A stretch of DNA of 32,000 nt from Candidatus Peribacter riflensis (GCA_001430755.1 CP013062.1:630001-662000), one strand, 5' to 3'. Positions 2,183-30,607 are shown, numbered from the stretch's first letter. The notes: generated from the sequence alone by a model not told the origin. Made by a program: numbers and translations.

Positions 2183-2812
2183 ATGAATCCCCTCTCTCCC
2201 GCGTACGATCCGAAGATCACCCGCCGCTACAGCGCGCGGACGATCGAGCATAAGGTGGAGAATAAAACCGCCCTGCAGCGTGAGCTCAATTGGCCAATGG
2301 AACCCAAGGCCCCCGTCATCTGCTTCCCGACCGGGATGTCAGATGCCCTCGGCGGGGAGCTTCTGAAGCAGCTGCTCCCGGGGCTCCTGGCGGTCTCCGC
2401 CGAACTGTTGGTGCTCGGCAAGGGAGAGAACGACTACGGTGAACTGTTCACCGGACTCGCGAAGGAGCGCGGCCACCGCATCGCCATCCTGCCGAACGAC
2501 GACGACAGCATACGCAAGATGCTGGCCGCTTCGGATATCGCCCTCTTCCTCACCGACCCCTGCGCGCTCCCGGAGCTTACGACCTGCCTGCAGTACGGCG
2601 TGGTTCCCGTCGCGCCAGAGTGTAAGGGACTTGAGGACTACAACCCCGTGCAGGAGACCGGCAATGCCTTCCTCGCCGGAGCCGAAACCCCGTGGCTGAT
2701 CTTCGCGGCCCTCGTACGCGCACTCGAAACCTTCAAGTTCCCGTTCGACTGGAGGACGATACAAAGACATGGGATGGAGTCGGTGCACGAAGAGAAACCT
2801 GTTGAGGGTTAG
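2183..2812 (+). CDS. Glycogen/starch synthase (GT5) C-terminal-half homologue, stand-alone 209 aa
   Basis: KVENKTALQRELNW..., LVLGKGENDYGELF and SDIALFLTDPCALPELTTCLQYGVVPV align by eye with the GlgA C-terminal Rossmann half (K.ENK.ALQ, LG.G...YE, PSRFEPCGL.Q.YA..YG..P). The N-terminal half is absent. Confidence 0.55.
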   Translation: MNPLSPAYDPKITRRYSARTIEHKVENKTALQRELNWPMEPKAPVICFPTGMSDALGGELLKQLLPGLLAVSAELLVLGKGENDYGELFTGLAKERGHRIAILPNDDDSIRKMLAASDIALFLTDPCALPELTTCLQYGVVPVAPECKGLEDYNPVQETGNAFLAGAETPWLIFAALVRALETFKFPFDWRTIQRHGMESVHEEKPVEG

Positions 2813-2924
2813 GGAACGAGATATTCGGGAACTAGGGATACGGGAACTAGGGAACTCGGATGAGGAAATGTGATCTTTTTGAAAAACCCGATTTCCCTAC
2901 TTCCCTACTTCCCGATTTCCCTAC
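2806..2924. repeat. Inverted pair of 7-8 nt unit arrays (GGGAAC-type left arm 2806-2859, CCCGATTT/CCCTACTT right arm 2887-2924) between convergent genes
   Basis: Left arm: gggttagggaacgagatattcgggaactagggatacgggaactagggaactcgg. Right arm: cccgatttccctacttccctacttcccgatttccctac. The arms are imperfect reverse complements through the GGGAA/TTCCC cores. Both flanking stop codons (2810-2812 and 2921-2923) lie inside the arms. Confidence 0.9.
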
Positions 2925-5375: not shown

Positions 5376-5440
5376 CTACAATACTTTTCGCGCCCGACTT
5401 GAACGTGTCCCATCCCTGCACGGGATCAGCACCGCAATGG
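5376..5440 (-). pseudogene. Displaced relic of the truB 3' end (encodes IAVLIPCRDGTRSSRARKVL*)
   Basis: Minus-strand codons 5438..5376 translate to the same 20 C-terminal residues as TruB (IAVLIPCRDGTRQSRARKVL*), with one substitution. No upstream ORF body is attached. Confidence 0.6.
5407..5440. repeat. Direct repeat, left copy: GTCCCATCCCTGCACGGGATCAGCACCGCAATGG
   Basis: 33 of 34 nt identical to 6517-6550, with a 28-nt perfect core (5413-5440 = 6523-6550). Confidence 0.95.
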
Positions 5441-6485: not shown

Positions 6486-7346
6486 TCACAGCACCTTCCT
6501 CGCCCGTGACTGCCTCGTCCCGTCCCTGCACGGGATCAGCACCGCAATGGGTAGCCCCTCGTTCCAGCCGATGGTATCGGGCGCGGTCTCGTGTGCGATG
6601 GAACGCCCGTGCTTGATATCCTCCGCCTGCGCATCGGTGAGTTCGAGTTTCGGGAACGCCGCGAGCACATCCTTTAAAGGAATGACCTTCGTCCACATCG
6701 CCATCCCGGGCTTTATGGCATCCTCCACCGACCACTCCCCCACGCTGATGCGCTTGAGCCCCTCCAGGTAGCCGCCGCACTGCAGGACCTGCCCGAGATC
6801 GTGCGCAAGCGAGCGGATGTAGGTACCCGAGCCGCAGGCTACTTTGAGGTGCAGGTGCGGGTACGCGTACCGCTCGATGATGCACTCGGTGATCTCGACC
6901 TCGCGGGGAGGGATGTTCACTCCCCTGCCCTGACGCGCCTTGCGGTACGCGCGCTCGCCGCCGATCTTCACCGCGGAGTGCGCGGGGGGCACCTGCTGGA
7001 TCTTGCCGAGGAAGCGACTGCCGATGATCGAACGAATCGTGATCTCATCGGGAGCATGCCAGCCCGCAACCGGCGACCACCGCTCGATCACGCCCTCGCG
7101 ATCGTACGTCGTACTCGTGGCGCCGAAATGGATGTGTGCGCGGTACTCTTTGGGCAGATCGGAAAAAAGCTCCACCACCTTGAGCGCCTTCGCCCCCACC
7201 GCGAGCACCAAAAGCCCCTCCGCCGCCGGATCGAGCGTGCCCAGATGCCCGATCTTCTGCTCTTTGAGCACCGCGCGCACCTGCGCCACGGCGTCATGGC
7301 TGGAGGGACCAATGGGCTTGTCGATGAGCAGAAAACCATGGCGCAT
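6486..7346 (-). CDS. truB: tRNA pseudouridine(55) synthase TruB
   Basis: MRHGFLLIDKPIGPSSHD, GHLGTLDPAAEGLLVLAVG (catalytic Asp) and QVPPAHSAVKIGGERAYKRAR-like motifs. The ORF-track start at 7388 is TTG; ATG at 7346 fits the family N-terminus. Confidence 0.85.
   Translation of the reverse strand: MRHGFLLIDKPIGPSSHDAVAQVRAVLKEQKIGHLGTLDPAAEGLLVLAVGAKALKVVELFSDLPKEYRAHIHFGATSTTYDREGVIERWSPVAGWHAPDEITIRSIIGSRFLGKIQQVPPAHSAVKIGGERAYRKARQGRGVNIPPREVEITECIIERYAYPHLHLKVACGSGTYIRSLAHDLGQVLQCGGYLEGLKRISVGEWSVEDAIKPGMAMWTKVIPLKDVLAAFPKLELTDAQAEDIKHGRSIAHETAPDTIGWNEGLPIAVLIPCRDGTRQSRARKVL
6517..6550. repeat. Direct repeat, right copy (inside the truB 3' end): GTCCCGTCCCTGCACGGGATCAGCACCGCAATGG
   Basis: See 5407-5440. 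Confidence 0.95.
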
Positions 7347-10332: not shown

Positions 10333-10440
10333 AGCTCGTCGCCCAATGGGACGCAGAAAAGCCTACGGAGTATCGCCGTTTTGGTCAACCGATAGAGGGT
10401 CTTTGCCTCATAACCCCCCCCTTCTGCTATACTGCACTCC

Positions 10441-12934: not shown

Positions 12935-13468
12935 ATGAAAAACGGCCCCAGAAACTCCCAAAAACAGGCCCGGAGGATCCTTGGCATTGACCCCGGTCTC
13001 GCCACCACCGGGCTCGGGCTCATCGAAGCGGATGAACGGCGGCAACTCACTGTGCTGGAATGGCTTACGATCTCAACGGCTGCAGGGCTTCCGCTTTCGG
13101 ATCGTCTGGAGGAAATCCGCAAGGATCTCCTGACCTACCTGCAGGAGCACCGGCCCGATCTCGCCGTCGTCGAACGACTCTTCTTCTCGACGAACGTCAA
13201 AACCGCCTTCGACGTGGCGCAGGTGCGCGGCGTGATTCTGCTCACCCTCGCCGAGCAGGGCATCGCCTGCCTGGAGCCCAATCCCCTCACCCTCAAATCC
13301 TGCATCACAGGTGACGGGCGCGCCGATAAGCGCCAGATGCAGGATATGCTCTGTCGCATACTGGATCTGAAAGAAATTCCGAAGCCCGATGATGCCGCAG
13401 ACGCTCTGGCGCTGGCGGTCTTCGGGGCGATGCAACAACAAGGGTTAGGAATAGAGGGTCGGGCGTAG
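12935..13468 (+). CDS. ruvC: Crossover junction endodeoxyribonuclease RuvC
   Basis: ILGIDPGLATTGLGLIE, AVVERLFFSTNVKTAFDVAQVRGV and PDDAADALALAV motifs. The ORF-track start at 12920 is TTG; ATG is at 12935. The last ~10 residues (QQGLGIEGRA*) are encoded by the left arm of a repeat array. Confidence 0.85.
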   Translation: MKNGPRNSQKQARRILGIDPGLATTGLGLIEADERRQLTVLEWLTISTAAGLPLSDRLEEIRKDLLTYLQEHRPDLAVVERLFFSTNVKTAFDVAQVRGVILLTLAEQGIACLEPNPLTLKSCITGDGRADKRQMQDMLCRILDLKEIPKPDDAADALALAVFGAMQQQGLGIEGRA

Positions 13469-13563
13469 GATTCACGAAAAACCTCTTCCCCTTCTCCTCT
13501 CCTCCCTACACCCTACGCCCTACGCCCTACAACCCTACGCCCCACGCCCTAATCCTACGCCCT
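13441..13563. repeat. Inverted heptamer arrays (left arm 13441-13472, right arm CCCTACG-type 13504-13563) between convergent ruvC and recF
   Basis: Right arm: ccctacaccctacgccctacgccctacaaccctacgccccacgccctaatcctacgccc. Left arm: agggttaggaatagagggtcgggcgtaggatt. Both stop codons (13466-13468 and 13535-13537) are inside the arms. Confidence 0.9.
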
Positions 13564-14659
13564 GTTCCATCACCTTCCCTCCCCCGACTTCCCACACCGT
13601 CGCGGAGGAAACCCCGGGAACACCGTGCGTCGTCGTGAGTAGCACCTGATGCCCTTTGAGCGAAGTCATGAGCCGCTCCTGGTGCACGTGATCCAGCTCT
13701 GAGAAGACATCATCGAGGAGGATGACCGGCTTTTCGCCGCGCCGGACCTCCATGTACGACACCTGCAGAAAGAGCAGAGCCAGTACGGCGGTGCGCTGCT
13801 GCCCGCGCGAGGCGAAGGTCGCGAGCTCCCGCCCCTCCACGTCGATCCGCCAGTCGTGCCGGTGGGGCCCAATCGTGGTGGTGCCGATGAGCAGGTCCCG
13901 CTCCCGAAAGTGAAGAAGATCGTGCTTGAGCTCACTCTCGATCCCCTCGAAGGTCGTCGCCCGGCCATGGCGGTCGTAGAGGAGCTCAACCTGCCGCCAC
14001 GCTTCGCCGAGCGCGTGCAGCTCCTCCTCCAGCGTGCACTGCAGCACTTTGAGCAGTTCCACGTGTCCCAGCGTGACTGCGGCCCCCTCTCGCGCGAGTG
14101 CGTCATCCCAAACCGTCAGATCCTGCTCCCGCCCCGTCCCCTCCCGGATCTTTTTGAGGAGCGCATTGCGCTGTTTGAGGACCTTCTGATACGTCTGCAG
14201 GTGCGCCGAGAACTCCGGAGCGACCTGCACGAGAAGATCATTGAGCAGATCGCGCCGGCGCGCCGGGGAGCCGCTGAAGAGCTCCAGATCCTGCGGCAGA
14301 AACGTCACCGCCGGCAGCATGCCGGTAAGGCGGCCGATCGGCATGCGCACATCATTCAAAAATCCGGCCCGCTGGCGGCGCGGGGCGCTCTGGCTCACGA
14401 TCTCGATGGTCTGTGTTTCGCGGGCATCGGACCGCACAGTCGCGCGAATGCGATAGTACATGTGCCCCCATGCGATGAGGTGGTCCTCCTCGACACCGAG
14501 AAAGGAGCGCCCGGTCGAGAGGAGGGAGAACGCTTCAAGAAGATTCGTCTTGCCTGCGGCATTCGCCCCCTGCAGAACATGCAGATCACCGTCGCCGAAC
14601 ACAAGATCCAGTGCGGTGTAGGAGCGGAACTGCTGGAGCGAGAGAGAAGTGACACGCAT
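13535..14659 (-). CDS. recF: DNA replication and repair protein RecF
   Basis: MRVTSLSLQQFRSY, Walker A GANAAGKTNLLEA, and a C-terminal LLLDDVFSELD (Walker B / signature region). Confidence 0.85.
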   Translation of the reverse strand: MRVTSLSLQQFRSYTALDLVFGDGDLHVLQGANAAGKTNLLEAFSLLSTGRSFLGVEEDHLIAWGHMYYRIRATVRSDARETQTIEIVSQSAPRRQRAGFLNDVRMPIGRLTGMLPAVTFLPQDLELFSGSPARRRDLLNDLLVQVAPEFSAHLQTYQKVLKQRNALLKKIREGTGREQDLTVWDDALAREGAAVTLGHVELLKVLQCTLEEELHALGEAWRQVELLYDRHGRATTFEGIESELKHDLLHFRERDLLIGTTTIGPHRHDWRIDVEGRELATFASRGQQRTAVLALLFLQVSYMEVRRGEKPVILLDDVFSELDHVHQERLMTSLKGHQVLLTTTHGVPGVSSATVWEVGGGKVMEQGVGLGRGA

Positions 14660-18594: not shown

Positions 18595-18680
18595 GCCGGA
18601 GTGGCGGAATTGGTAGACGCGCACGACTCAAAATCGTGTGCCGCAAGGCGTTGAGGGTTCGATTCCCTCCTCCGGCACCA
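18595..18680 (+). tRNA. tRNA-Leu (anticodon CAA), long variable arm, CCA encoded
   Basis: GCCGGAG-TG-GCGG..-CACGA-CTCAAAA-TCGTG-TGCCGCAAGGCGT-GAGGG-TTCGATT-CCCTC-CTCCGGC-A-CCA. Confidence 0.9.
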
Positions 18681-18725
18681 TTCGTCGGCCCTTTGGGCCT
18701 CCTCATGGCAAGCCATGGTATGCCA
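18681..18725 (+). repeat. Variant copy of the dispersed tRNA-associated motif (TTCG / GGCCC-TTT-GGGCC / ..GGCAAGCC)
   Basis: ttcgtcGGCCCtttGGGCCtcctcatGGCAAGCCatggtatgcc, immediately after the tRNA-Leu CCA. Confidence 0.55.
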
Positions 18726-18727
18726 TC

Positions 18728-18949
18728 TCACTGCGACTGCCCATCCTCCTCCATCAGCCGCAGGACCGCGTACACCTTGGCCGCCGTTTCATGAGGGCCC
18801 TGCCCCAGACGGCGGCATACTTCCTGCACGATATCGTACCTGCGCATACAGCCGACACCGGAACACGGTATCTGCCCGGCGTGAATATCCGCATCGACAG
18901 CGCGGATAAGATCGGCGATCTGCTGCTGCTCCGGAGGGAGAGAAATCAT
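18728..18949 (-). CDS. Hypothetical 73-aa protein
   Basis: ATG-initiated ORF (MISLPPEQQQIADLIRAVDADIHAGQIPCSGVGCMRRYDIVQEVCRRLG...). No family recognised; the composition is plausible for a real protein. Confidence 0.35.
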   Translation of the reverse strand: MISLPPEQQQIADLIRAVDADIHAGQIPCSGVGCMRRYDIVQEVCRRLGQGPHETAAKVYAVLRLMEEDGQSQ

Positions 18950-19050
18950 ACAGATGTTTTAGCACTCCCGGTGATCAGCGCAAACCCCCTTATTTCTCAA
19001 GGGAATATCCACCACACAAGCCACGGGCCCCGCTATGATGGGGTCTCCCG

Positions 19051-20520
19051 ATGAAGCAGTACTCCTCCTTCATTTTCGATTCCTATGCCTTCGATTCGGA
19101 GGCGGGAACCATCGAGCTCCGCTACGCGCTGGATGATGAGACATTCTTCACCGAGACCCTGCTCCTGCCCAAAGACTATCAGCTGCAAGCTCCAAGTGCG
19201 CAGCAGGATGCGGCACTCGCGGCGCTGCACCTGATCGGCGGCATCAGTTACTACAAAACCTGTTTGCCGAAGAAGATTACAATAAATGATTCCGCTACTT
19301 CTCTCCCCGCCGGGGAGAGACCGAGTGAGGGGGACATACGAAGAAAACCTTTGACCCAAGAACAAGCTGACTTCTGGAACACGGTGTACACGAAAGGCCT
19401 CGGAGAATTCTTCTTCAAGAACCAGATCGACTTCCGAAATCTCATCAATTTCCCGTCTTCACCCCTCACCCCAGCCCTCTCCCCACGGGAGAGGGTGGCG
19501 CAAAGCGCCGGGAGAGGGGCTCGTCTCTTAGTCCCCATCGGCGGCGGCAAAGATTCGACCGTCACCATTGAGCTCCTCAAGAGAGCGGGATACGACATCA
19601 CGCTCTTCCGTATCGGCAGACACCCGCTCATCGAGGAAACCGCGAAAACCGCAGGGCTCCCCCTGCTCACCGTGGAACGCCACCTGGCTCCGGAACTTTT
19701 CAAACTGAATGCGGAGGGCGCCTTGAACGGCCATGTGCCCATCACCGCATATCTCTCGTTCCTGAGCGTTGTGATCGCCGAGCTCTACGGATTCCACGCC
19801 GTCGTGATGAGCAACGAACGGAGCGCCAGCGAGGGCAATGTGGACTACCTGGGCAGCCAGATCAACCATCAGTGGAGCAAGAGTCTGGAATGTGAACGCC
19901 TGCTCCGGCAGTACATGGAAGGGATTGGCAGCGGCGTGCAGTACTTCAGCCTGCTGCGGCCGTTGAGCGAACTCTCCATTCTGAAAACGTTCTCCACCCT
20001 CCCGCAATATTTCTCCTGCATAACGAGCTGCAATACCAACTGGAAAATCGCCTCTTCACGATTGCCGAGTTCCCGAGTTCCCGAGTTCCCTCCCCCTCCT
20101 GTGCAGGGAAATAGGGAAATAGGGAAAGCGGGAGAACGAAATCGCTGGTGTGGCACATGCCCCAAGTGCGCGTTCGCCTTCACACTCTTCGCCGCGTTCC
20201 TGCCGAAGAAGACACTCCTGGAGATCTTCGGGAAGAATCTGTTCGATGCAGAGGCTCTGCAGCCATTCTTCCGTCAACTCCTCGGCCTCGAGGGCTTCAA
20301 GCCGTTCGAGTGCGTGGGCACGCCGGAGGAAACGTCCGCCGCTTTCCTGCTCGCACAGGAGCGGGGCGATCTCACGGATACGAAAGCCATGCAGATCTTT
20401 CTGCAGGAGGTGAAGCCAAAGATCAAGGATGCGAAGACACTGATCGCCTCGGTGCTGGAACCGGGCGACGAGCACTGCATCCCCGAACAATTCCACTCAG
20501 CACTTCCCTCAATCCCTTAG
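19051..20520 (+). CDS. PP-loop ATPase-like protein, candidate UDP-MurNAc-L-Ala-L-Glu epimerase (MurL-like), carrying three in-frame repeat modules
   Basis: 489 aa. LLVPIGGGKDSTV (PP-loop-like SGGxDS), a conserved-looking WCGTCPKCAF block, and a position immediately upstream of murD. The MurL assignment comes from remembered family features and synteny, not a search. Confidence 0.55.
   Translation: MKQYSSFIFDSYAFDSEAGTIELRYALDDETFFTETLLLPKDYQLQAPSAQQDAALAALHLIGGISYYKTCLPKKITINDSATSLPAGERPSEGDIRRKPLTQEQADFWNTVYTKGLGEFFFKNQIDFRNLINFPSSPLTPALSPRERVAQSAGRGARLLVPIGGGKDSTVTIELLKRAGYDITLFRIGRHPLIEETAKTAGLPLLTVERHLAPELFKLNAEGALNGHVPITAYLSFLSVVIAELYGFHAVVMSNERSASEGNVDYLGSQINHQWSKSLECERLLRQYMEGIGSGVQYFSLLRPLSELSILKTFSTLPQYFSCITSCNTNWKIASSRLPSSRVPEFPPPPVQGNREIGKAGERNRWCGTCPKCAFAFTLFAAFLPKKTLLEIFGKNLFDAEALQPFFRQLLGLEGFKPFECVGTPEETSAAFLLAQERGDLTDTKAMQIFLQEVKPKIKDAKTLIASVLEPGDEHCIPEQFHSALPSIP
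19300..19334 (+). repeat. GC hairpin module TCTCTCCCC-GCC-GGGGAGAGA + CCGAGTGAGGGGGA, in frame in the MurL-like CDS
   Basis: Perfect 9-bp stem at 19300-19320. Encodes ..SLPAGERPSEGD.. Confidence 0.85.
19459..19520 (+). repeat. GC hairpin module (CACCCCTCACCCC, CCCTCTCCC-CAC-GGGAGAGGG, GGCGC-AAA-GCGCC, GGGAGAGGGG), in frame in the MurL-like CDS
   Basis: Perfect 9-bp stem at 19475-19495 and 5-bp stem at 19497-19509. Encodes SSPLTPALSPRERVAQSAGRGA, directly before the PP-loop. Confidence 0.85.
20065..20137 (+). repeat. Octamer arrays in inverted arrangement (CCGAGTTC x3; GGGAAATA x2, GGGAAAGC, GGGAGAAC), in frame in the MurL-like CDS
   Basis: Read directly. Encodes SSRVPEFPPPPVQGNREIGKAGERN, just before WCGTCPKC. 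Confidence 0.9.
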
Positions 20521-20568
20521 TCCTTCGTCCTTCGTCCTCTGTCCTCAGTGCTCTATCCTCCGCCCCTC
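20505..20568 (+). repeat. One-armed pyrimidine-rich heptamer array (TTAGTCC, TTCGTCC x2, TCTGTCC ...) filling the murL-like/murD junction up to ATG 20569
   Basis: cttccctcaatcccttagtccttcgtccttcgtcctctgtcctcagtgctctatcctccgcccctc-ATG. The upstream stop TAG (20518-20520) is part of a unit. Confidence 0.9.
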
Positions 20569-21909
20569 ATGCACATCCGCGACCTCAGCGGCAAATCGAT
20601 CTGCATTCTCGGCTACGGCCGTGAGGGACAAGCCATGCTCAAGGCGCTGGAGGAGCACGCGCCCGGCTGCGAGATCACGGTCGCGGACCAGGATGCGGCA
20701 ATCACGCTCCCGAAGGGATCTCGCCACTGGTTGCAGGTGGGAGATGGCTGGCTCAAAAACCTCGACAAGTTCGACGTATTGATCAAATCGCCCGGCATTC
20801 CGCCACATCCGGTGCTCGAAGCCTACCGCTCTGCACTCATCTCACCCACCCAGATCTTCTTCGATTCCATTCGAGACTCGGGAGCCATGGTCATTGGAGT
20901 GACCGGTTCAAAAGGAAAAAGCACGACGGCCAGTCTTCTGTACCACATCCTCCAAACAAGCCAACCAGCCCACCAGCCAACCAGCCGCATTCTCCTCGTC
21001 GGCAACATCGGCGAGCCCGCCATCGCGCACCTGAAGGACGCAGCCCCCGGGACGACCTGTGGTGAGCGCAGTCGAACCATCTTCGTGATGGAGATGAGCA
21101 GCTACCAGCTCATGGATCTCACAACAAGCCCGCACCTCGCCGTCGTGACCTCGTTCTTCCCCGAGCACCTGGACTATCATGGATCGGTGGAAGCCTACGG
21201 AGAAGCGAAGAAACACATCGCGCGCTTTCAGACCAAAGAGGACACGGTGTTCTTCATGGCTGATTCGGCAGGGACGCTCGAGATCGCCAAAGAGAGCCGC
21301 GGAAAGCGCATCCCCTTCTCTGCAGCGGACACTCCGGTGGCGATCGGCGAGACACAGCTCATCGGCACGCACAACCTCGGCAACATTGCAGCCGCCTTCC
21401 TCGTCAGTCAGGAGCTTGGAGTTGAAAAAGAGATCGCCGTTGCAGCGATCCGCTCGTTCACTCCCCTGCCCCATCGCCTGCAGAGCCTGGGCATCAAGCA
21501 CGACATCGAATGGGTGGATGATTCTATTTCCACAACGCCGCAGTCAGCCATCGCCGCGCTCGATGCGCTGGGAGACCGCGTGGCGACGATCATCCTCGGC
21601 GGCTTAGACCGCGGCTACGACTTCAGCCCCCTCGCAGAGCGCCTCACACAATCGACAGTACAAACGGTGATTCTTCTTCCCGAGAGCGGAAAGCGAATTG
21701 GAGAAGCCCTGAAGAAAGCCACGGCCCACGCTCAGATCTGCGAGGCGAAGAACATGGAAGAAGCCGTCACTCTCGCAAAGCAGCACACCCGAAGTCCGAT
21801 TCCCGATTCCCGATTCCCAATCGTATTGCTTTCCCCCGCCTCCCCCAGTTACGGGCACTTCAAGAACTTCGAAGACCGGGGGGAGCAATTCGCTCGTGCT
21901 GCGCAGTAA
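20569..21909 (+). CDS. murD: UDP-N-acetylmuramoyl-L-alanine--glutamate ligase (MurD; possibly MurD2 type)
   Basis: ILGYGREGQA, GVTGSKGKSTTASLL (P-loop), MEMSSYQL, GTHNLGNIAAA, DDSISTTPQSAIAAL and LLSPASPSYGHFKNFEDRGEQF motifs. The ORF-track start at 20548 is GTG inside the array; ATG is at 20569. Confidence 0.85.
   Translation: MHIRDLSGKSICILGYGREGQAMLKALEEHAPGCEITVADQDAAITLPKGSRHWLQVGDGWLKNLDKFDVLIKSPGIPPHPVLEAYRSALISPTQIFFDSIRDSGAMVIGVTGSKGKSTTASLLYHILQTSQPAHQPTSRILLVGNIGEPAIAHLKDAAPGTTCGERSRTIFVMEMSSYQLMDLTTSPHLAVVTSFFPEHLDYHGSVEAYGEAKKHIARFQTKEDTVFFMADSAGTLEIAKESRGKRIPFSAADTPVAIGETQLIGTHNLGNIAAAFLVSQELGVEKEIAVAAIRSFTPLPHRLQSLGIKHDIEWVDDSISTTPQSAIAALDALGDRVATIILGGLDRGYDFSPLAERLTQSTVQTVILLPESGKRIGEALKKATAHAQICEAKNMEEAVTLAKQHTRSPIPDSRFPIVLLSPASPSYGHFKNFEDRGEQFARAAQ
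20957..20988 (+). repeat. Octamer array CCAACCAG / CCCACCAG / CCAACCAG, in frame in murD
   Basis: Three 8-nt units (24 nt) encoding QPAHQPTS, just after the P-loop helix. Confidence 0.85.
21058..21081 (+). repeat. In-frame fragment related to the 30949-31017 hairpin element (TGGTGAGC-nnn-GTCGAACCAT)
   Basis: tgtGGTGAGCgcaGTCGAACCATc compared with catGGTGAGCtctGTCGAACCATg at 30956-30978. Encodes CGERSRTI in murD. Confidence 0.6.
21791..21823 (+). repeat. Heptamer array GAAGTCC + GATTCCC x3, in frame in murD
   Basis: Read directly. Encodes RSPIPDSRFPI, just before the conserved LLSPA..S block. Confidence 0.9.
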
Positions 21910-22864: not shown

Positions 22865-23860
22865 ATGTTCACCACGCTCGCACTCCTCATCATCGGTTTT
22901 GCGTTCCTCATCAAGGGCGCCGACTGGCTGGTCTCTGGCGCATCCGCTCTCGCAAGGAAGCTGGGAGTATCGGACCTGGCCATCGGGCTCACCATCGTGG
23001 CCTTCGGCACCTCCATGCCGGAATTCATGGTGAACATGATCGCGAGTCTGCAGGGCAACAGCGATATCGCCATCGGCAACGTGGTCGGGAGCAACATCTT
23101 CAATATCCTCCTGATCCTGGGCCTCTCGGCTCTCATCGCGCCGATCATCGTGCAACGGTCCACCACGCTCAAAGAAATCCCCTTCAGCTTCCTCGCAGTC
23201 CTGATGCTGCTCGTCATGGCCAATGACGTGTTTGTGGACGGATATGCGCGATCAGAATTGAGCAGGAGCGACGGTCTGGCCTTCATCGGATTCTTCGTGA
23301 TCTTCCTGATCTATACGATGAACCTGCCGCACGCCGGGGAATCCGTCGCCACACCTGAAGCAACAAAAGGGACATGGACATCTGTTGCACTCATCGTGCT
23401 CGGTCTCACAGGCCTCGTGCTCGGAGGAAAGTTCACCGTAGACTCCGCTGTGGCTATCGCACGCGTACTGGGCCTCTCAGAGGCGCTCATCGGTCTCACT
23501 ATCGTCGCAGTGGGAACCTCTCTGCCAGAACTGGCGACTTCCATGGTGGCCGCTCGCAAGAAGAACGCCGATATCGCCGTGGGGAACATCGTGGGCAGCA
23601 ACATCTTCAATATCTTCTGGATCCTCGGGGTGAGCGCCGTGATCCGGCCGATCCCCTTCACGCCGGCAGCCAACTTCGACCTGTGGGTGCTAGTGGCCGT
23701 CACCGTGCTCCTCTTCTTCCTCATCCATAACGGATGGCTCTTGCGCAGAATTTTCCTGTGGTGGAAACAACGTGCCCATTACGTCATCCGCTGGTGGGAG
23801 GGCGCGATCATGGTCGCCTGTTACTGCGCATACATCGGCTACATCGTGTGGCGCGGATAA
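22865..23860 (+). CDS. CaCA-family Na+/Ca2+ (K+-dependent type / YrbG-like) antiporter
   Basis: Two alpha-repeats: GLTIVAFGTSMPEF..GNVVGSNIFNILLILG and GLTIVAVGTSLPELATS..GNIVGSNIFNIFWILG. TGgTAGAGT (22849-22857) lies 7 nt upstream of ATG 22865. Confidence 0.8.
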   Translation: MFTTLALLIIGFAFLIKGADWLVSGASALARKLGVSDLAIGLTIVAFGTSMPEFMVNMIASLQGNSDIAIGNVVGSNIFNILLILGLSALIAPIIVQRSTTLKEIPFSFLAVLMLLVMANDVFVDGYARSELSRSDGLAFIGFFVIFLIYTMNLPHAGESVATPEATKGTWTSVALIVLGLTGLVLGGKFTVDSAVAIARVLGLSEALIGLTIVAVGTSLPELATSMVAARKKNADIAVGNIVGSNIFNIFWILGVSAVIRPIPFTPAANFDLWVLVAVTVLLFFLIHNGWLLRRIFLWWKQRAHYVIRWWEGAIMVACYCAYIGYIVWRG

Positions 23861-24963: not shown

Positions 24964-25695
24964 ATGCAGCCCGTACTGCTTTGTCTGCACGGCTGGGGAG
25001 GCTCCAAGGAATCCTTCGATGAGCTCAAGGCCGCGCTCGACGGCGAAGACCTGTTGATCCTCACGCCGGATCTTCCCGGCTTTGGGCTGGAACCGGAACC
25101 GGATCGTCCGTGGAGCGTGGATGACTATGCCAATTGGGTCGAAGTGTATCTGCAGAAAACCCTACGCCCTACGCCCTACGCCCAAAGTCCTCTTCTCCTC
25201 CTCGGTCATTCGCACGGCGGACGCATCGCCATCAAACTCGCAGCCAGACAAACGAACAGCTACAAGCTAGATCACCTCTACCTCTGCGCCGCCGCAGGCA
25301 TCCGTCACCGGTCACTCAAGCGGCTCCTTGGCAGGATGCTGGCAGGCATCGGACGCGCACTCTTCGCCATCCCCGGTCTCTCAAAGCTGGAGCCGTTTGC
25401 GAAGAGAATGCTCTACAAGCTCCTGCGCGAGCACGACTACGAGCGGGCATCGCCCATCATGCGGCAAACCCTCGCAAGGGTCACGGCGGAGGATCTGACT
25501 TCCCTCCTTCCGAAGATCGCAGTGCCCACCGATCTCTTCTGGGGCGAGGACGATACGTACACGCCCATCGCTCACGGCCGCCTGATGCATGAGGGCATCC
25601 GCGGGAGCGTGCTGCATACATTTGAAGGGACCCGTCACCGCGTGCACCGCGATCGCGCCCTCGAAATCGCCTCTGTCATCCGCGATCATCTCTAA
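24964..25695 (+). CDS. Alpha/beta hydrolase
   Basis: LLCLHGWGGS and the nucleophile elbow LLGHSHGG, plus a C-terminal H in GTRHRVH. TACTAT (24950-24955) lies 8 nt upstream of the ATG. Confidence 0.8.
   Translation: MQPVLLCLHGWGGSKESFDELKAALDGEDLLILTPDLPGFGLEPEPDRPWSVDDYANWVEVYLQKTLRPTPYAQSPLLLLGHSHGGRIAIKLAARQTNSYKLDHLYLCAAAGIRHRSLKRLLGRMLAGIGRALFAIPGLSKLEPFAKRMLYKLLREHDYERASPIMRQTLARVTAEDLTSLLPKIAVPTDLFWGEDDTYTPIAHGRLMHEGIRGSVLHTFEGTRHRVHRDRALEIASVIRDHL
25160..25190 (+). repeat. Heptamer array CCTACGC x3 (+CCAAAGT), in frame in the hydrolase CDS
   Basis: Same unit as the ruvC/recF junction array. Encodes TLRPTPYAQS, just before the nucleophile-elbow strand. Confidence 0.9.
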
Positions 25696-25769
25696 CCTTA
25701 ACCTTATATCTCACCCTTCGTCCTTAGTCCTTCGTCCTTCGTCCTTCGTCCTTAGTCCTAATCCCTAAA
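25693..25769 (+). repeat. One-armed array (TAACCT x2 ... TTCGTCC/TTAGTCC x6, TAATCCC, TAAA) filling the hydrolase/murF junction up to ATG 25770
   Basis: Read directly. It begins with the hydrolase stop TAA, and stop codons occur in all three frames (25725, 25753 and 25766). Confidence 0.95.
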
Positions 25770-27302
25770 ATGTCTCTCCTCCTCGCCCTGCTCACGCTCA
25801 CGGCCACGCTCTCGCCCCTCCTCACCTTCGCCACCCTCTGGCAGGTGAAAGAGTGGCGGACCGACCGCCTGCGGGAACACCTGCGCAGCGAGGGACTGTT
25901 CGTGCAGATCTTCGGCTTTGTAAAACCCCTCGTGCTCCTGCTCGCCCTGCCGGCGCTGGTGTTGCAGTGGCTTCCGCATGTCACCTGGACTGTCGGCGTG
26001 CTCTCGCTCCTCACCGTGCTCACCATCGCGCGCATCGCTTTAGACCGGCAGCCGCACCCCGTGTGGACGGCCAAGGCCGTCGCGCTCATGGCGGGAGCCT
26101 TCGTCTTCGTCCTGGCGGCGACCGTGTGGCTGCTGCTCCTCCCCCTCACGCATACCCCGGCACTGGCGGTGATTCCCCTGCTCTCCCCCATCGCTCTTTT
26201 AGGTTCGTGGATCGTCTTCTCCCCGGTTGATGCCCTGCTCAAACGACGCATCCTTGCGCACGCACGCCGACTGCGAAAGAAGTATGCGGACCTGGTCGTC
26301 ATCGGCATCACGGGGAGCGTGGGTAAGACCACCACCAAAGAACTGCTCCTGCACCTGCTGCGTGACACCGGTGCGCACGCCACGCCCGCCTACGTGAACT
26401 CCGAAGTGGGTGTCGCGCGGTGGCTCATTCACACGCTGTCGGGCACCGCCGTACCGAAGATCCTCATCGTCGAGATGGGCGCCTACCGCAGCGGCGAGAT
26501 CCGCCTGCTGAGCGAAGTCACACAGCCGATCGTCGGCATCATCACGTTCGTGGGATCGCAGCACATGGCGCTCTTCGGCTCACAAGAGAAACTGCTCTCC
26601 GCCAAGGCCGAACTCTTCGACGTGTTGCCATCGGAAGGCGCAGCAATCGTAAACGGAGACAGCCCGTTCGCCGATCAGCTCCGCCCGCACGCACGCTGTC
26701 GCACCGTCACCGTAGGCACAGGCGGACGGGCGGATCTGGAAGCATTCGATATTGAGGAAACCTCCGCAGGCCTGCGGTTCCGCGCCGGCAACACCATGGT
26801 CACCACTCCGCTGCATGGCACGCACAACGTGACCAATGTCCTGCTCGCCATGGCTGCCGCAGAGACGCTGGGGCTCAAGCGCTCCGATGTCGCGCGCAAG
26901 CTCGCAAGCTTCCGGCCGCCCGAACACACATTCTCGGTGCGTTCCGTCGGCTCTCTCACCCTGCTTGATGACACGCACAATGCCAGCCCGGCCAGTTTCA
27001 AGGCCGCAATCGGATGGGCCAAAGCCCAGCCAGCCGAGGGCAAGGTGCTCCTCACGAGCGGCCTGATCGAGCTTGGAGAAGGAGAAGACCGCATCCATGC
27101 GGAACTGGGCGTGGAAGCAGTGGGCATCTTCGACCGCGTGATCTTCACTCATGGCCGCCACGCCCGCGCCTTCGAACGTGGCTACGGCAAACCCGTGGAG
27201 ATTCTGTCGAAAGCAACGAAGCCTGTGAACCACCGCTCCCTCTTCGTATGCGTCGGCCGCATTCCCGAAGAAACCGTCCGCCGTTTACTTCCCAAGTCCT
27301 AA
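25770..27302 (+). CDS. murF: MurF-type Mur ligase (UDP-MurNAc-tripeptide--D-Ala-D-Ala ligase) with an N-terminal polytopic membrane domain
   Basis: About 150 aa with 4-5 hydrophobic helices, then VVIGITGSVGKTTTKE (P-loop), NSEVGVARWL, IVEMGAYRSGEI, LHGTHNVTNVLLA and LDDTHNASPASF, as in MurF. Confidence 0.8.
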   Translation: MSLLLALLTLTATLSPLLTFATLWQVKEWRTDRLREHLRSEGLFVQIFGFVKPLVLLLALPALVLQWLPHVTWTVGVLSLLTVLTIARIALDRQPHPVWTAKAVALMAGAFVFVLAATVWLLLLPLTHTPALAVIPLLSPIALLGSWIVFSPVDALLKRRILAHARRLRKKYADLVVIGITGSVGKTTTKELLLHLLRDTGAHATPAYVNSEVGVARWLIHTLSGTAVPKILIVEMGAYRSGEIRLLSEVTQPIVGIITFVGSQHMALFGSQEKLLSAKAELFDVLPSEGAAIVNGDSPFADQLRPHARCRTVTVGTGGRADLEAFDIEETSAGLRFRAGNTMVTTPLHGTHNVTNVLLAMAAAETLGLKRSDVARKLASFRPPEHTFSVRSVGSLTLLDDTHNASPASFKAAIGWAKAQPAEGKVLLTSGLIELGEGEDRIHAELGVEAVGIFDRVIFTHGRHARAFERGYGKPVEILSKATKPVNHRSLFVCVGRIPEETVRRLLPKS

Positions 27303-27326
27303 CCCTAGCCCTTCGTCCTCCGTCCC
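27289..27326 (+). repeat. Short-unit pyrimidine-rich array across the murF/degT junction, running into the degT start
   Basis: cttcccaagtcctaaccctagcccttcgtcctccgtccc-ATG-tccttcctccatcccatccat. The first DegT codons (MSFLHPIHH) continue the periodic pattern. Confidence 0.8.
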
Positions 27327-29431: not shown

Positions 29432-30607
29432 ATGACTATTCAGGAAGCCACAAATCCGCAGGAGTGGGATGCCTTTCTCGCCACGCAAACCTTCCGCCCG
29501 TTCCTGCAGAGCTGGACGATGGGCGAGGTGTATCGCGACACCAAGCAGGAACCCATCCGGCTGGAGGTGCGCGAAGGGCAAGAGATCGTAGCGATTTGTC
29601 TGGCAATTCTCGTTCCCGCGAGGCGCGGCCGCCACCTGATGATCCCCTACGGACCGGTCATGCGAAGTACAGAGTACGGAGTACAAAGTACGGAAGTATT
29701 CAATCTTCTTCTTGAAAAGCTGAAGCGGGTCGCCAAAGAACACCGCTGCTCTTTCATCCGCATGAGTCCCTTCTGGCCTTCCGATTTCCCGAGTTCCCGA
29801 GTTCCCTCCGCCATCCCTTCTCCCCTCCACCTGCTCGCCGAACATCTCTGGTACCTGCCGCTGCAGACGCCGGATCCCTGGCAATTTAATTCCCCTCTCA
29901 CCGCGGGAGAGGGGTTAGGGGTGAGGGGCACTCACCGTACGGAGGAAGAACTGCTCGCAGGGCTGCGCAAGACGACCCGGAACCTGGTGCGACGCGCGGA
30001 GCGTGATGGCGTGACCGTAGAAGCTTCAAAAGATCCGAACCGCGAGATCGAACACTTCATCGCACTGCACGAAGAGACCCGCCAGCGCCACGGATTCACC
30101 CCCTACACACACGCGTTCTTTCGCTCGCAGGTACGCCGCTTTTCCGCACGCAACGAATGCACGCTCTACCTCGCGCGCTTTCAGGGCGAAGTGGCTGCGG
30201 CCTCCATCCACATGCACGCCTTCGGCGAATGTAGCTACCACCACGGCGCCAGTACGCACCGCCTCTCCAAAGTGCCGACGAGCTACCTGCTGCAGTGGAC
30301 GGCCATCCGCGATGCGCTCAAACGCGGTGATCACGTGTACAACTTCTGGGGGATTGCCCCCGTGATCGGGAATCGGGAATCGGGAATCGGACCCAGGACA
30401 TCGGAACAAGAACAGGGATCTTCCCGAAGTCCGAATCCCGAATCCCGAATTCCTTCATCCCATCCCTTCGCCGGCGTCACGCTCTTCAAGACCGGGTTCG
30501 GCGGCGGGCTGCTCCCCCTGACGCACTGCATGGATTTTCCCCTGTCTGCGCGGTACCATCTCACCCGTGCCTTCGAACTCCTCCGCAAATGGCGCAGAGG
30601 ATTCTGA
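29432..30607 (+). CDS. FemAB-family peptidoglycan interpeptide aminoacyltransferase-like protein with four in-frame repeat modules
   Basis: WDAFLATQTFRPFLQSWTMGE, LMIPYGPV, RKTTRNLVRRAERDGV, ALHEETRQRHGF and LFKTGFGG resemble the FemAB/FemX family (PF02388-like). ATG 29432 lies 7 nt after TAGAAT. Confidence 0.7.
   Translation: MTIQEATNPQEWDAFLATQTFRPFLQSWTMGEVYRDTKQEPIRLEVREGQEIVAICLAILVPARRGRHLMIPYGPVMRSTEYGVQSTEVFNLLLEKLKRVAKEHRCSFIRMSPFWPSDFPSSRVPSAIPSPLHLLAEHLWYLPLQTPDPWQFNSPLTAGEGLGVRGTHRTEEELLAGLRKTTRNLVRRAERDGVTVEASKDPNREIEHFIALHEETRQRHGFTPYTHAFFRSQVRRFSARNECTLYLARFQGEVAAASIHMHAFGECSYHHGASTHRLSKVPTSYLLQWTAIRDALKRGDHVYNFWGIAPVIGNRESGIGPRTSEQEQGSSRSPNPESRIPSSHPFAGVTLFKTGFGGGLLPLTHCMDFPLSARYHLTRAFELLRKWRRGF
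29664..29698 (+). repeat. Heptamer array NNAGTAC x4-5, in frame in the FemAB-like CDS
   Basis: gaagtac agagtac ggagtac aaagtac ggaagta, encoding RSTEYGVQSTEV. Confidence 0.85.
29779..29830 (+). repeat. Octamer array CCGATTTC, CCGAGTTC x2 plus a C-rich tail, in frame in the FemAB-like CDS
   Basis: Same CCGAGTTC unit as 20065-20088. Encodes SDFPSSRVPSAIPSPL. Confidence 0.85.
29892..29928 (+). repeat. GC hairpin module CCCCTCTC-loop-GAGAGGGG + TTAGGGGTGAGGGG, in frame in the FemAB-like CDS
   Basis: 8-bp stem at 29892-29914, same family as 19300-19334 and 19459-19520. Encodes SPLTAGEGLGVRG. Confidence 0.85.
30364..30470 (+). repeat. Inverted heptamer arrays (ATCGGGA x3 left; CCGAAGT, CCGAATC x2, CCGAATT right), ~105 nt, in frame in the FemAB-like CDS
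   Basis: Encodes GNRESGIGPRTSEQEQGSSRSPNPESRIPSSHP between two conserved-looking blocks (NFWGIAP ... FAGVTLFKTGFGG). Confidence 0.9.

Follow-up and report, generated by a model that had tools for sequence, protein, structure and literature searches.

Palindromic DNA is known to lie in frame within unrelated housekeeping genes, at many loci, where it encodes a peptide compatible with the fold of the host protein. This is the case of the Rickettsia palindromic elements, or RPEs (Ogata et al. 2000), which are about 150 bp long, fall into families with a conserved peptide-coding consensus and are restricted to Rickettsia (PMC10969869). Then there are the tandem GGGNATC heptamers of Xanthomonas and Nostoc, found at the boundaries of open reading frames (ORFs), obeying a strand rule and depleted in coding regions (Rehm et al. 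2015, PMC4692102). The subject here is a stretch of 32,000 nucleotides from Candidatus Peribacter riflensis (CP013062.1:630001-662000), called the window below, with positions counted from its first letter, and within it a gene for a MurL-like enzyme that contains three repeat modules. I propose that the modules are in-frame copies of short repeats of two classes, settled in permissive loops of an otherwise conserved MurL epimerase. This composite reading I hold to be the probable one, with one of its steps less secure than the rest.

The ORF at 19051..20520 (plus strand) runs for 489 aa with no interruption, and its protein is a 100% match to one from P. riflensis, a member of the Peregrinibacteria within the Candidate Phyla Radiation (CPR). 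The NCBIfam model MurL_Xanthmoales (NF041275) matches it with E = 8.1e-122 and 406.9 bits, below the 700-bit equivalog cut-off, and precomputed Pfam assigns MurL_N (PF26299) and MurL_epimerase_C (PF26298). A local Pfam scan and a sequence search of the PDB with the protein gave no match, so that the family assignment is drawn from NCBIfam, the precomputed Pfam and the fold. The AlphaFold2 (AF2) model has a mean predicted confidence (pLDDT) of 84, and its Foldseek matches are the PP-loop enzymes QueC and TtuA; the ORF contains the motif GGGKDS. A gene for MurD (TIGR01087, 7e-82) starts 49 nt 3' of it. Judged by family models, PP-loop fold and pairing with a MurD-type gene, the product is a MurL-like PP-loop epimerase, as far as sequence can say. 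The activity itself, ATP-dependent epimerization of L-Glu to D-Glu, is known only for the enzymes of Xanthomonas, Micromonospora and Salinispora (PMC8788868).

An earlier note, made from the sequence of the window, had placed three modules in this gene and had taken all of them for inserts in an intact ORF. A second reading of positions 18600-20800 finds the modules where that note had them, the frame open throughout and the quoted peptides encoded. Whether they are inserts was judged by aligning 31 orthologues, by measuring the length of each site between anchors in 103 orthologues, and by codon alignments with the DNA of four sister-genome loci (L007-L010). The first module qualifies. Insert 1 (19279..19332, plus strand; 54 nt, 18 aa, peptide TINDSATSLPAGERPSEG) consists of an A/T-rich leader, the hairpin TCTCTCCCC-GCC-GGGGAGAGA with a perfect 9-bp stem and a 3-nt loop (19300-19320), then CC and GAGTGAGGGG. 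Site 1 is 16 aa long in 101 of the 103 orthologues; the insert is carried only by this protein, whose site 1 has 34 aa, and by P0004, whose site has 42 aa. Insert 1 is therefore a genuine insertion of 18 aa. It is missing from L007 and L009 and is found in L008 with an additional 24 nt nested within it. The gap it leaves in the codon alignments is a clean 54 nt; that of insert 3 is a clean 66 nt.

Insert 3 (20056..20139, plus strand) is made of two facing octamer arrays with G3/C3 tracts that form an imperfect hairpin (fold z = -2.75). The left array, (CCGAGTTC)x3.2 at 20065-20090, and the right array, (AGGGAAAT)x2.9 at 20105-20127, each with 100% identity between units according to Tandem Repeats Finder (TRF), are separated by a C-rich spacer. 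The units may be written GGGAACTC and GGGAAATA; four units of the latter type span 20105-20137, contributing four G3 tracts (20106-20134). The region adds about 22-24 aa between NWKI and RWCGTCPKC, and its segment 20074-20139 (66 nt) is missing in L007 and L008. It lies within what relatives have as a heptamer array. Site 3 is an indel hotspot, 34 aa long here with a median of 19 and a range of 10-77 aa, reduced to a minimal loop in 26 of 103 orthologues and filled by unrelated repeats in different lineages. Residues homologous to the inserts in unrelated lineages would mean that nothing had been inserted; there are none at site 1, and the sequences at site 3 are unrelated.

Module 2 (19462..19519, plus strand) is another matter. 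It is a set of nested hairpins in the variable linker upstream of GGGKDS, CCCTCTCCC-CAC-GGGAGAGGG at 19475-19495 followed by GGCGC-AAA-GCGCC at 19497-19509. Outer arms CCCCTCACCCC and GGGAGAGGGG surround CCCTCTCCCC-ACG-GGGAGAGGG and the small hairpin, and these ends are base-paired with each other in the predicted structure (-43.6 kcal/mol, z = -5.4), whereas insert 1 has an internal hairpin only. Its minus strand reads CCCTCTCCC-GTG-GGGAGAGGG-CT-GGGGTGAGGGG. The linker at site 2 is 41 aa here, which is also the median of the 103 orthologues (range 35-213 aa), so module 2 replaces linker without net insertion. Thus the claim of insertion stands for inserts 1 and 3, lineage-specific and of 54 and 66 nt, both multiples of three, and fails for module 2. 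The DNA of module 2 is common to the window, L007 and L009, and a similar peptide is encoded in the orthologue P0010. In its place L008 has heptamer arrays and the orthologue P0083 a whole DUF559 element, to which I return.

All three modules coincide with the stretches of the AF2 model where pLDDT falls below 50 (residues 82-90, 146-151 and 336-362). They are loops outside the catalytic motifs: as the earlier note had observed, GGGKDS and WCGTCPKC flank the modules and are not contained in them. The product is thereby predicted to gain disordered loop peptides, Pro/Ser-rich and then Gly/Glu/Arg-rich, of no apparent benefit.

Could the modules be removed before the mature protein is made, as an intervening sequence, by bypass or in the manner of an intein, or could the gene be a pseudogene or the assembly wrong? 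The last of these has something to be said for it. One metagenome scaffold (L001) has a run of Ns at 20693-20742, corresponding to window 29743-29792 and thus exactly at an octamer array in a FemAB-like gene, an assembly gap caused by the repeat, and in that assembly gene callers split FemAB and a 510-aa Mur ligase. Repeats do disturb assembly and annotation. The window, though, is identical to CP013064.1 around 630-662 kb, three further independent assemblies (including ENA) agree with it apart from 0-2 SNPs that lie elsewhere than in the modules, and the identical MurL protein is encoded on at least 24 contigs. As for removal, the ORF is intact, the inserts are multiples of three, and in inserts 1 and 3 the gene's frame alone is free of stops, a constraint expected only if they are translated. 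At 18-28 aa they are too short for an intein, and the local Pfam scan of the protein gave no match. Explanations of this kind I consider very improbable. If the inserts are translated, peptides such as SLPAGERPSEGDIR and VPEFPPPPVQGNR would span their junctions. The earlier note held that the modules persist only where the frame stays open; the open frames are consistent with that, but little else could be expected of an essential gene that is intact.

Where else do such modules occur? Consider the hairpins first, here called class A: insert 1, module 2 and a module in the FemAB-like coding sequence (CDS) at 29432-30607. They share an architecture, namely a pyrimidine arm, a loop of 3-7 nt, a purine arm, N2-3 and then G(G/A)GTGAGGGG. 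Insert 1 in these terms is TCTCTCCCC-GCC-GGGGAGAGA-CC-GAGTGAGGGG. The FemAB copy (site C, 29892..29928, plus strand), CCCCTCTCACCGCGGGAGAGGGG-TTA-GGGGTGAGGGG, reads in full CCCCTCTC-ACCGC-GGGAGAGGGG-TTA-GGGGTGAGGGG and has the architecture of the DUF559 terminal repeats described below. It is in inverted orientation, and the recurrence of the hairpin family claimed for this position is confirmed. Site C is common to L009, while L007 has (AGCTCAC)n instead. In the window the pattern of the module-2 hairpin, CCCTCTCCCNNNGGGAGAGGG with up to 3 mismatches, has 2 matches against 0.02 expected, and that of the insert-1 hairpin, CTCTCCCCNNNGGGGAGAG, has 5 against 0.45. The encoded peptide varies with orientation and frame (SPLTPALSPRERV in MurL, SPLTAGEGLGVRG in FemAB). 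In the Peribacteria DNA examined, every family hairpin but one lies inside a CDS, MurL or FemAB. The exception, at L167:19360-19379, about 8 kb past the right end of the window, is a sibling of the insert-1 hairpin, TCTCTCCC-CTTG-GGGAGAGA, in the intergenic space between a convergent Fmt gene and a 90-aa gene.

A possible source of class A is provided by P0083, a MurL orthologue of 612 aa present on two contigs. At site 2, upstream of GGGKDS, it contains in frame (L010:10369-10945, residues about 125-315) a complete and apparently intact DUF559/Vsr-like endonuclease domain (Pfam E = 8e-31, residues 171-275) that keeps 12 of the 12 residues invariant in alignment A3. Inverted hairpin repeats, C-rich and G-rich, enclose the domain, and site 3 of P0083 has a further copy of the right-hand one (SPPPRRPLSGVEGGGVGEG...).

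Hairpins of this sort are found beside DUF559 genes elsewhere. The flanks were surveyed of 80 metagenome loci (L087-L166) encoding relatives of the P0083 domain, by simple stem and regex criteria. Perfect hairpins of at least 8 bp occur at 3.3-6.5 per kb within 200 nt of the DUF559 gene, mostly at 0.2-0.5 per kb further away and at 0.04 per kb inside it; of 70 loci, 49 show one or more and 33 show them to either side of the gene. Overwhelmingly the pyrimidine arm comes first and the purine arm second, as in CCCCTCTCCC-N-GGGAGAGGGG, CCCCTCCT-N-AGGAGGGG and CCTCCCCC-N-GGGGGAGG. At several loci the upstream and downstream copies are reverse-complementary, loops included, making terminal inverted repeats of 25-60 nt around small, stand-alone DUF559 genes. 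Near the genes, in 33.7 kb, there are 20 copies of the core of a hairpin, N2-4 and GGGGTGAGGGG; the 149.7 kb distant from them, 4.4-fold more sequence, contain 6. Usually the G tail faces the gene, pointing toward it in 14 cases and away in 6. The terminal repeat of L133 contains GGCGGC-AAA-GCCGCC, a counterpart of GGCGC-AAA-GCGCC in module 2, and P0146, a stand-alone DUF559 protein from a deltaproteobacterial metagenome-assembled genome, ends in ESPLTPALSRRERG where module 2 encodes SPLTPALSPRERV. Such hairpin-derived tails are found in only 10 of 120 DUF559 proteins, because most of the hairpins lie outside the ORFs. Heptamer arrays were also tried as companions of DUF559 and rejected, being present at 0.31 per 10 kb near the genes and 0.89 per 10 kb further off.

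The class A copies in MurL would then most likely be gene-less derivatives of DUF559-type selfish elements, MITE-like (that is, resembling miniature inverted-repeat transposable elements) or solo termini, or else targets of such elements, brought into the loop by break repair or recombination.

The tandem arrays, class B, are something else, and here the notion of a single kind of element gives way to two unrelated classes. Class B comprises insert 3 and the arrays of MurD and FemAB, with units that are mostly heptamers or octamers containing G3/C3 tracts. The window has 39 tandem arrays, where dinucleotide shuffles give 5.1, and 26 with a period of 7, 8 or multiples thereof, where shuffles give 1.5. 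Strong 7/8-nt arrays are about five-fold denser outside CDSs, 1.9 per kb in intergenic or gene-end DNA versus 0.35 per kb in CDSs, and nine of them lie in frame inside CDSs. Those inside CDSs cluster in the cell-wall gene cluster at 19-31 kb; the 16 kb flanking the window are nearly free of arrays. When the genes of the window are compared with the four sister loci, most indels of at least 4 aa coincide with a repeat module. Such arrays number 1-10 per 10 kb at every Peribacteria locus examined, and the units are very diverse, some common to several species and many lacking G3 tracts.

The octamer of insert 3 is itself dispersed. FemAB site B (29781..29806, plus strand), again (CCGAGTTC)x3.2, is a sibling of the left array of insert 3, with 84% identity over 43 nt including flanks; it is common to L007, and L009 has (AGCTACA)n instead. 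Arrays of CCGAGTTC are found at four non-orthologous loci of the Peribacteraceae genome STD1_115, in both orientations, two of them antisense inside CDSs (Tgt-like and O-antigen-ligase-like) and one in an intergenic hairpin. These come from a scan of a genome collection with CCGAGTTCCCGAGTTCCC, whose 76 matches are mostly high-GC genomes with unrelated 24-nt coding periodicities; the P. riflensis genome is not among the matches, and the Peribacteraceae matches alone are informative. The earlier note had the units recurring both in other genes and in intergenic arrays of the window. In other genes they do, but CCGAGTTC itself lies only in CDSs within the window, and what the intergenic arrays contain are related units.

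What is most puzzling about class B is what happens at orthologous sites. In loops compared between the window (29660-29697 and 21787-21822) and L007, L008 and L009, length is exactly kept while the heptamer unit differs. FemAB site A (29666..29694, plus strand) is an (AGTACNG)x4-5 array, and over 12 orthologous codons L007 has (AGCTCAC)n and L009 (AGCTACC)n. The C-terminal loop of MurD has at equal length (TCCCGAT)n here, (AGCTCAC)n in L007 and (CCCTACG)n in L008. The window's array there, called by TRF as (CCGATTC)x3.3 (21796..21818, plus strand), is (GGGAATC)n on the minus strand and is 97% complementary to 30364-30392. Moreover, each genome reuses its own unit: AGCTCAC three times in L007, ACTCAAG three times in L008, AGCTACC/A at four sites or more in L009. 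Hairpin modules and arrays even replace each other at the same site. Arrays that differ at the same length, with units reused genome by genome, suggest turnover or homogenization rather than single landing events. The proposal that dispersed elements had landed in coding sequence is thus borne out insofar as in-frame copies of the families occur at other loci and in other genes; as a one-off landing it is too simple.

Several observations weigh against the composite reading. About 48 kb of P. riflensis DNA yielded neither a DUF559 gene nor a transposase, and neither did the other Peribacteria loci, L010 excepted; no target-site duplication was seen by eye in codon alignments at insert 1, insert 3 or a 24-nt insert in MurD. 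The DUF559 step is the weaker part of the reading, one to which I would give an even chance at the very best. DUF559 is not known as a transposase or homing enzyme, and it could have inserted beside hairpins already present. Module 2 is length-neutral relative to orthologues. The sampled strains exhibit no differences in array copy number, the sole difference at an array being a run of Ns, and so give no sign of ongoing activity. Equal-length orthologous arrays can also be produced by concerted evolution in place. Finally, one observation that fits the composite reading can also be taken otherwise. Third-codon-position identity between insert 1 and its counterpart in L008 is 0.89, while in the rest of the gene it is 0.57; the modules shared between lineages have synonymous-site identity of 0.76-0.89, as compared with 0.57-0.59, and selection on RNA or DNA structure could instead be responsible.

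An alternative view, to which some of these points lend themselves, is that nothing has moved: the modules are ordinary low-complexity linkers, shaped in place by slippage and concerted evolution, and their likeness from locus to locus is convergence born of biases in composition and slippage. Sites 2 and 3 do vary in length and sequence over all 103 orthologues, the units at FemAB site A and the MurD C-terminal loop are only 1-3 bases apart (AGCTCAC, AGCTACC, AGTACNG) within loops of the same length, and both target-site duplications and strain-level polymorphism went unseen. But it is much to ask of slippage that a site of invariant length in 101 of 103 orthologues should gain a complete 54-nt module at once, or that MurL and FemAB should hit upon an identical octamer array with similar flanks, found also at four non-orthologous loci of another species and in both orientations. 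Nor would slippage be expected to place one genome's unit at several separate loci, or to arrive at the multi-part hairpin architecture of arms, loop, spacer and GGGGTGAGGGG common to the DUF559 terminal repeats of unrelated metagenomes. I regard this view as unlikely.

Might the modules instead be useful? They could tune translation, mRNA stability or replication through mRNA or DNA structure (hairpin, G-quadruplex, i-motif), or act as disordered linkers that mediate interactions. The lower synonymous divergence of the shared modules would fit, as would the strength of the predicted structures (z = -5.4 for module 2, -2.3 to -2.75 for the others), the concentration of in-CDS arrays in the cell-wall cluster amid nearly array-free flanks, and the proposal that related GGGNATC repeats are regulators at ORF boundaries (PMC4692102). 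Against this, close relatives differ in the presence or absence of modules, hairpins and unrelated arrays swap freely at the same site, insert 1 is missing from 101 of 103 orthologues, and the loop at site 3 is minimal in 26 of 103. Rfam scans, at the gathering threshold and by E-value, gave only four tRNAs and two chance-level matches, and a known RNA family is rejected as the identity of the modules. A function of this kind I find quite unlikely.

The composite reading runs as follows. Class A copies would come from DUF559-type elements in the manner set out above. Class B arrays, mainly a feature of gene boundaries in Peribacteria genomes, would spread and overwrite one another, probably by slippage together with template switching or ectopic conversion, and would survive inside genes only where their length and frame are tolerated. 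In an essential gene, purifying selection would let through only those copies that are free of stops, a multiple of three in length and located in loops. The inserts would be translated and near-neutral.

From this I put forward a broader proposal, tentatively, since I think it rather more apt to fail in some part than to hold as a whole. It has two independent halves. DUF559/Vsr-like genes bracketed by terminal inverted repeats of a hairpin plus GGGGTGAGGGG may constitute a widespread and undescribed class of selfish element, the nuclease counterpart of the repetitive extragenic palindromes (REPs) and their transposases (RAYTs), whose solo hairpins, and occasionally whole nuclease ORF, colonize the loops of essential genes, in frame, in the gene-dense genomes of CPR bacteria. 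And there may be in Peribacteria a mechanism by which the hepta- and octamer arrays scattered over a genome are overwritten with a unit peculiar to it, length kept, even in CDSs. The searchable literature, which is incomplete, yielded no prior description of DUF559/Vsr-like genes with inverted repeats or of repeats in Peribacteria, and the P. riflensis genome paper does not mention them.

The window has further arrays. MurD has, besides its C-terminal loop, a (AACCAGCC)x4 array found by TRF (20955..20986, plus strand; peptide QPAHQPTS), which has orthologous AACAAGCC and AGCCAACC arrays in L007 and L008 and is an indel relative to L010. A (CCCTACG)x3.4 array, also found by TRF, lies in the CDS of an alpha/beta-hydrolase (25160..25183, plus strand), a gene that in L007 and L009 has GCTACCA and CCAGCTA arrays. 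FemAB site D (30365..30453, plus strand), (GGGAATC)x3.7 facing (TCCCGAA)x4 as an imperfect hairpin, is partly or wholly missing from L007 and L009. Outside genes the arrays take two forms. One is the facing pair, again an imperfect hairpin, between convergent genes: (GGGAACTA)n facing (TTCCCTAC)n at 2812..2924 (fold z = -3.4), and a G-rich array facing (CCCTACG)n across the convergent 3' ends of RuvC and SMC_N at 13437..13566 (fold z = -4.3). The other is the pyrimidine-rich leader abutting a start, such as the heptamers (CCTTCGT/CCTCTGT)n between the MurL stop and the MurD start (20515..20560, plus strand). Leaders of this family also precede the starts at 25770 and 27327, and L007 and L009 have them too.

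In four genes the sense strand has a pyrimidine-rich heptamer array (GTCCTAA, TCCCTAA, CCTTCGT) that extends as far as the ATG, at 2148-2182, 20515-20568, 25715-25769 and 27303-27326. At these four starts no GGAGG-like Shine-Dalgarno sequence is visible, and two of the leaders contain CCTCC. In L007 and L009 the orthologous genes are preceded by conserved leaders of the same family.

MurD also contains a 24-nt in-frame insert (21055..21078, plus strand; TCGERSRT) with a mini-hairpin CGA-GCGCAG-TCG, missing from L007, L008 and L009. A module similar to it (core CGAGCNNAGNCGA), encoding CPERSRGG, is the one nested in MurL insert 1 of L008 (L008:920-943), and in L009 a similar segment (about 10390-10411) stands where module 2 has its small hairpin; the kinship of the three was judged by eye. 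A search for the family by pattern, GAGCGAAGCCGA with 2 mismatches, found 6 matches against 7 expected, the level of chance.

The window also has two direct repeats. A 34-nt direct repeat, 97% identical (GTCCCRTCCCTGCACGGGATCAGCACCGCAATGG), lies at 5407-5440 and 6517-6550, on either side of a gene of the CNNM family, and contains a small hairpin, TCCC-TGCAC-GGGA. A 90-nt direct repeat within a Na+/Ca2+ exchanger gene (23057-23146 and 23564-23653, 73% identical, 507 nt apart) is presumably an ordinary internal duplication of that family. Upstream of MurL, an 87-aa gene call on the plus strand (18791-19054) overlaps a conserved 73-aa minus-strand ORF (18728-18949). In L007, L008 and L009 it is the minus-strand ORF that has been called as a gene, and the 87-aa call is probably spurious. 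At L009:8600-9240, a gene for a GIY-YIG nuclease and two small ORFs lie between phosphoribosyltransferase/tRNA-Leu and MurL, where the window has only 370 nt. On the 5' side of the tRNA, L009 has an apparent duplicated fragment of the tRNA's 5' end interrupted by a G/C-rich insert, and after the tRNA a (GAGACGT)n/(TTTACGTC)n hairpin. MurL with a neighbouring MurD-type ligase is common across Peregrinibacteria (7710 database proteins at E <= 1e-5); a review of the pathway lists MurL only for some Gammaproteobacteria, Alphaproteobacteria and rare actinobacteria. Xanthomonas, the organism in which MurL was discovered, also has the GGGAATC repeat, probably by coincidence.

What does it matter that a few loops contain repeats? 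A very small, gene-dense CPR genome, about 15% intergenic in the stretches examined, still carries short repetitive DNA, with many of its strong arrays and nearly all of its hairpin modules in predicted-disordered loops of essential cell-wall enzymes. For a G/C-rich hairpin common in metagenomes, which when translated gives predicted proteins a tail such as PLTPALSPRERG or GEGLGVRG, an origin is proposed in the terminal repeats of DUF559 genes. Arrays that differ in the same loop between sister genomes, and match other loci of their own genome, bear on how bacterial repeats are homogenized. On the practical side, modules make proteins look more divergent than they are, disrupt assembly and gene calling, and may invite annotations that mislead.

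How, then, does the locus compare with the described systems? The analogy with RPEs offered by the earlier note is functionally apt, palindromic DNA being tolerated in frame and in surface loops: the modules of the window are palindromic and lie in frame in unrelated genes (MurL, MurD, FemAB), in low-confidence surface loops. They differ from RPEs in being 24-84 nt long, in belonging to two unrelated classes, one of them tandem, in having a CPR host, in being replaced by other repeats at orthologous sites, and in encoding no conserved peptide, the peptide depending on orientation and frame. Because size, lineage and, as it appears, sequence differ, the modules are not members of an RPE family.

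The small dispersed repeats (SDR) of Nostocaceae, 21-27 nt long, are reportedly nested in their own copies and embedded in heptamer arrays. They were reported as confined to one cyanobacterial group (PMC5861425, which cites Elhai et al. 2008, Genome Res 18:1484). The 24-nt module, nested in insert 1 of L008 and present in MurD, resembles them, as does insert 3 inside the heptamer array of relatives; the lineage differs, and the likeness is one of description.

Class A calls to mind MITEs and the REP-REPIN-RAYT system, in which dispersed, gene-less hairpin repeats coexist with gene-carrying relatives bracketed by them in inverted orientation. MITEs have an autonomous relative, and here there are DUF559 genes bracketed by the same module, one of them at site 2 of MurL itself, with a putative role in mobilization. 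Yet what is bracketed here is a gene for a DUF559/Vsr-like endonuclease of the PD-(D/E)XK type rather than for a transposase of the DDE or Y1 type. Unlike MITEs, the putatively mobile class A has no target-site duplication that could be seen. And whereas REPs are extragenic and flank a gene for a Y1 (IS200/IS605-like) transposase, the Peribacteria copies lie almost only in CDSs.

Class B is closest to the GGGNATC repeats. (GGGAATC)n is present at 30365-30390 and, on the minus strand, at 21796-21818, the unit identical and the arrays dispersed, and insert 3 is a variant of the type in that its octamer units (GGGAACTC, GGGAAATA) form a facing pair. The boundary arrays also follow the strand rule: the C-rich strand is sense just 5' of starts and the G-rich strand just 3' of stops, as at 2148-2182, 25715-25769, 2812-2924 and 13437-13566. 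It is the nine strong arrays in frame in CDSs, and the many units without G3 tracts, that set class B apart. By analogy, then, class A would follow the logic of MITEs and REP-RAYT with a nuclease in place of the transposase, and class B would be a coding-region variant of the GGGNATC type of repeat.

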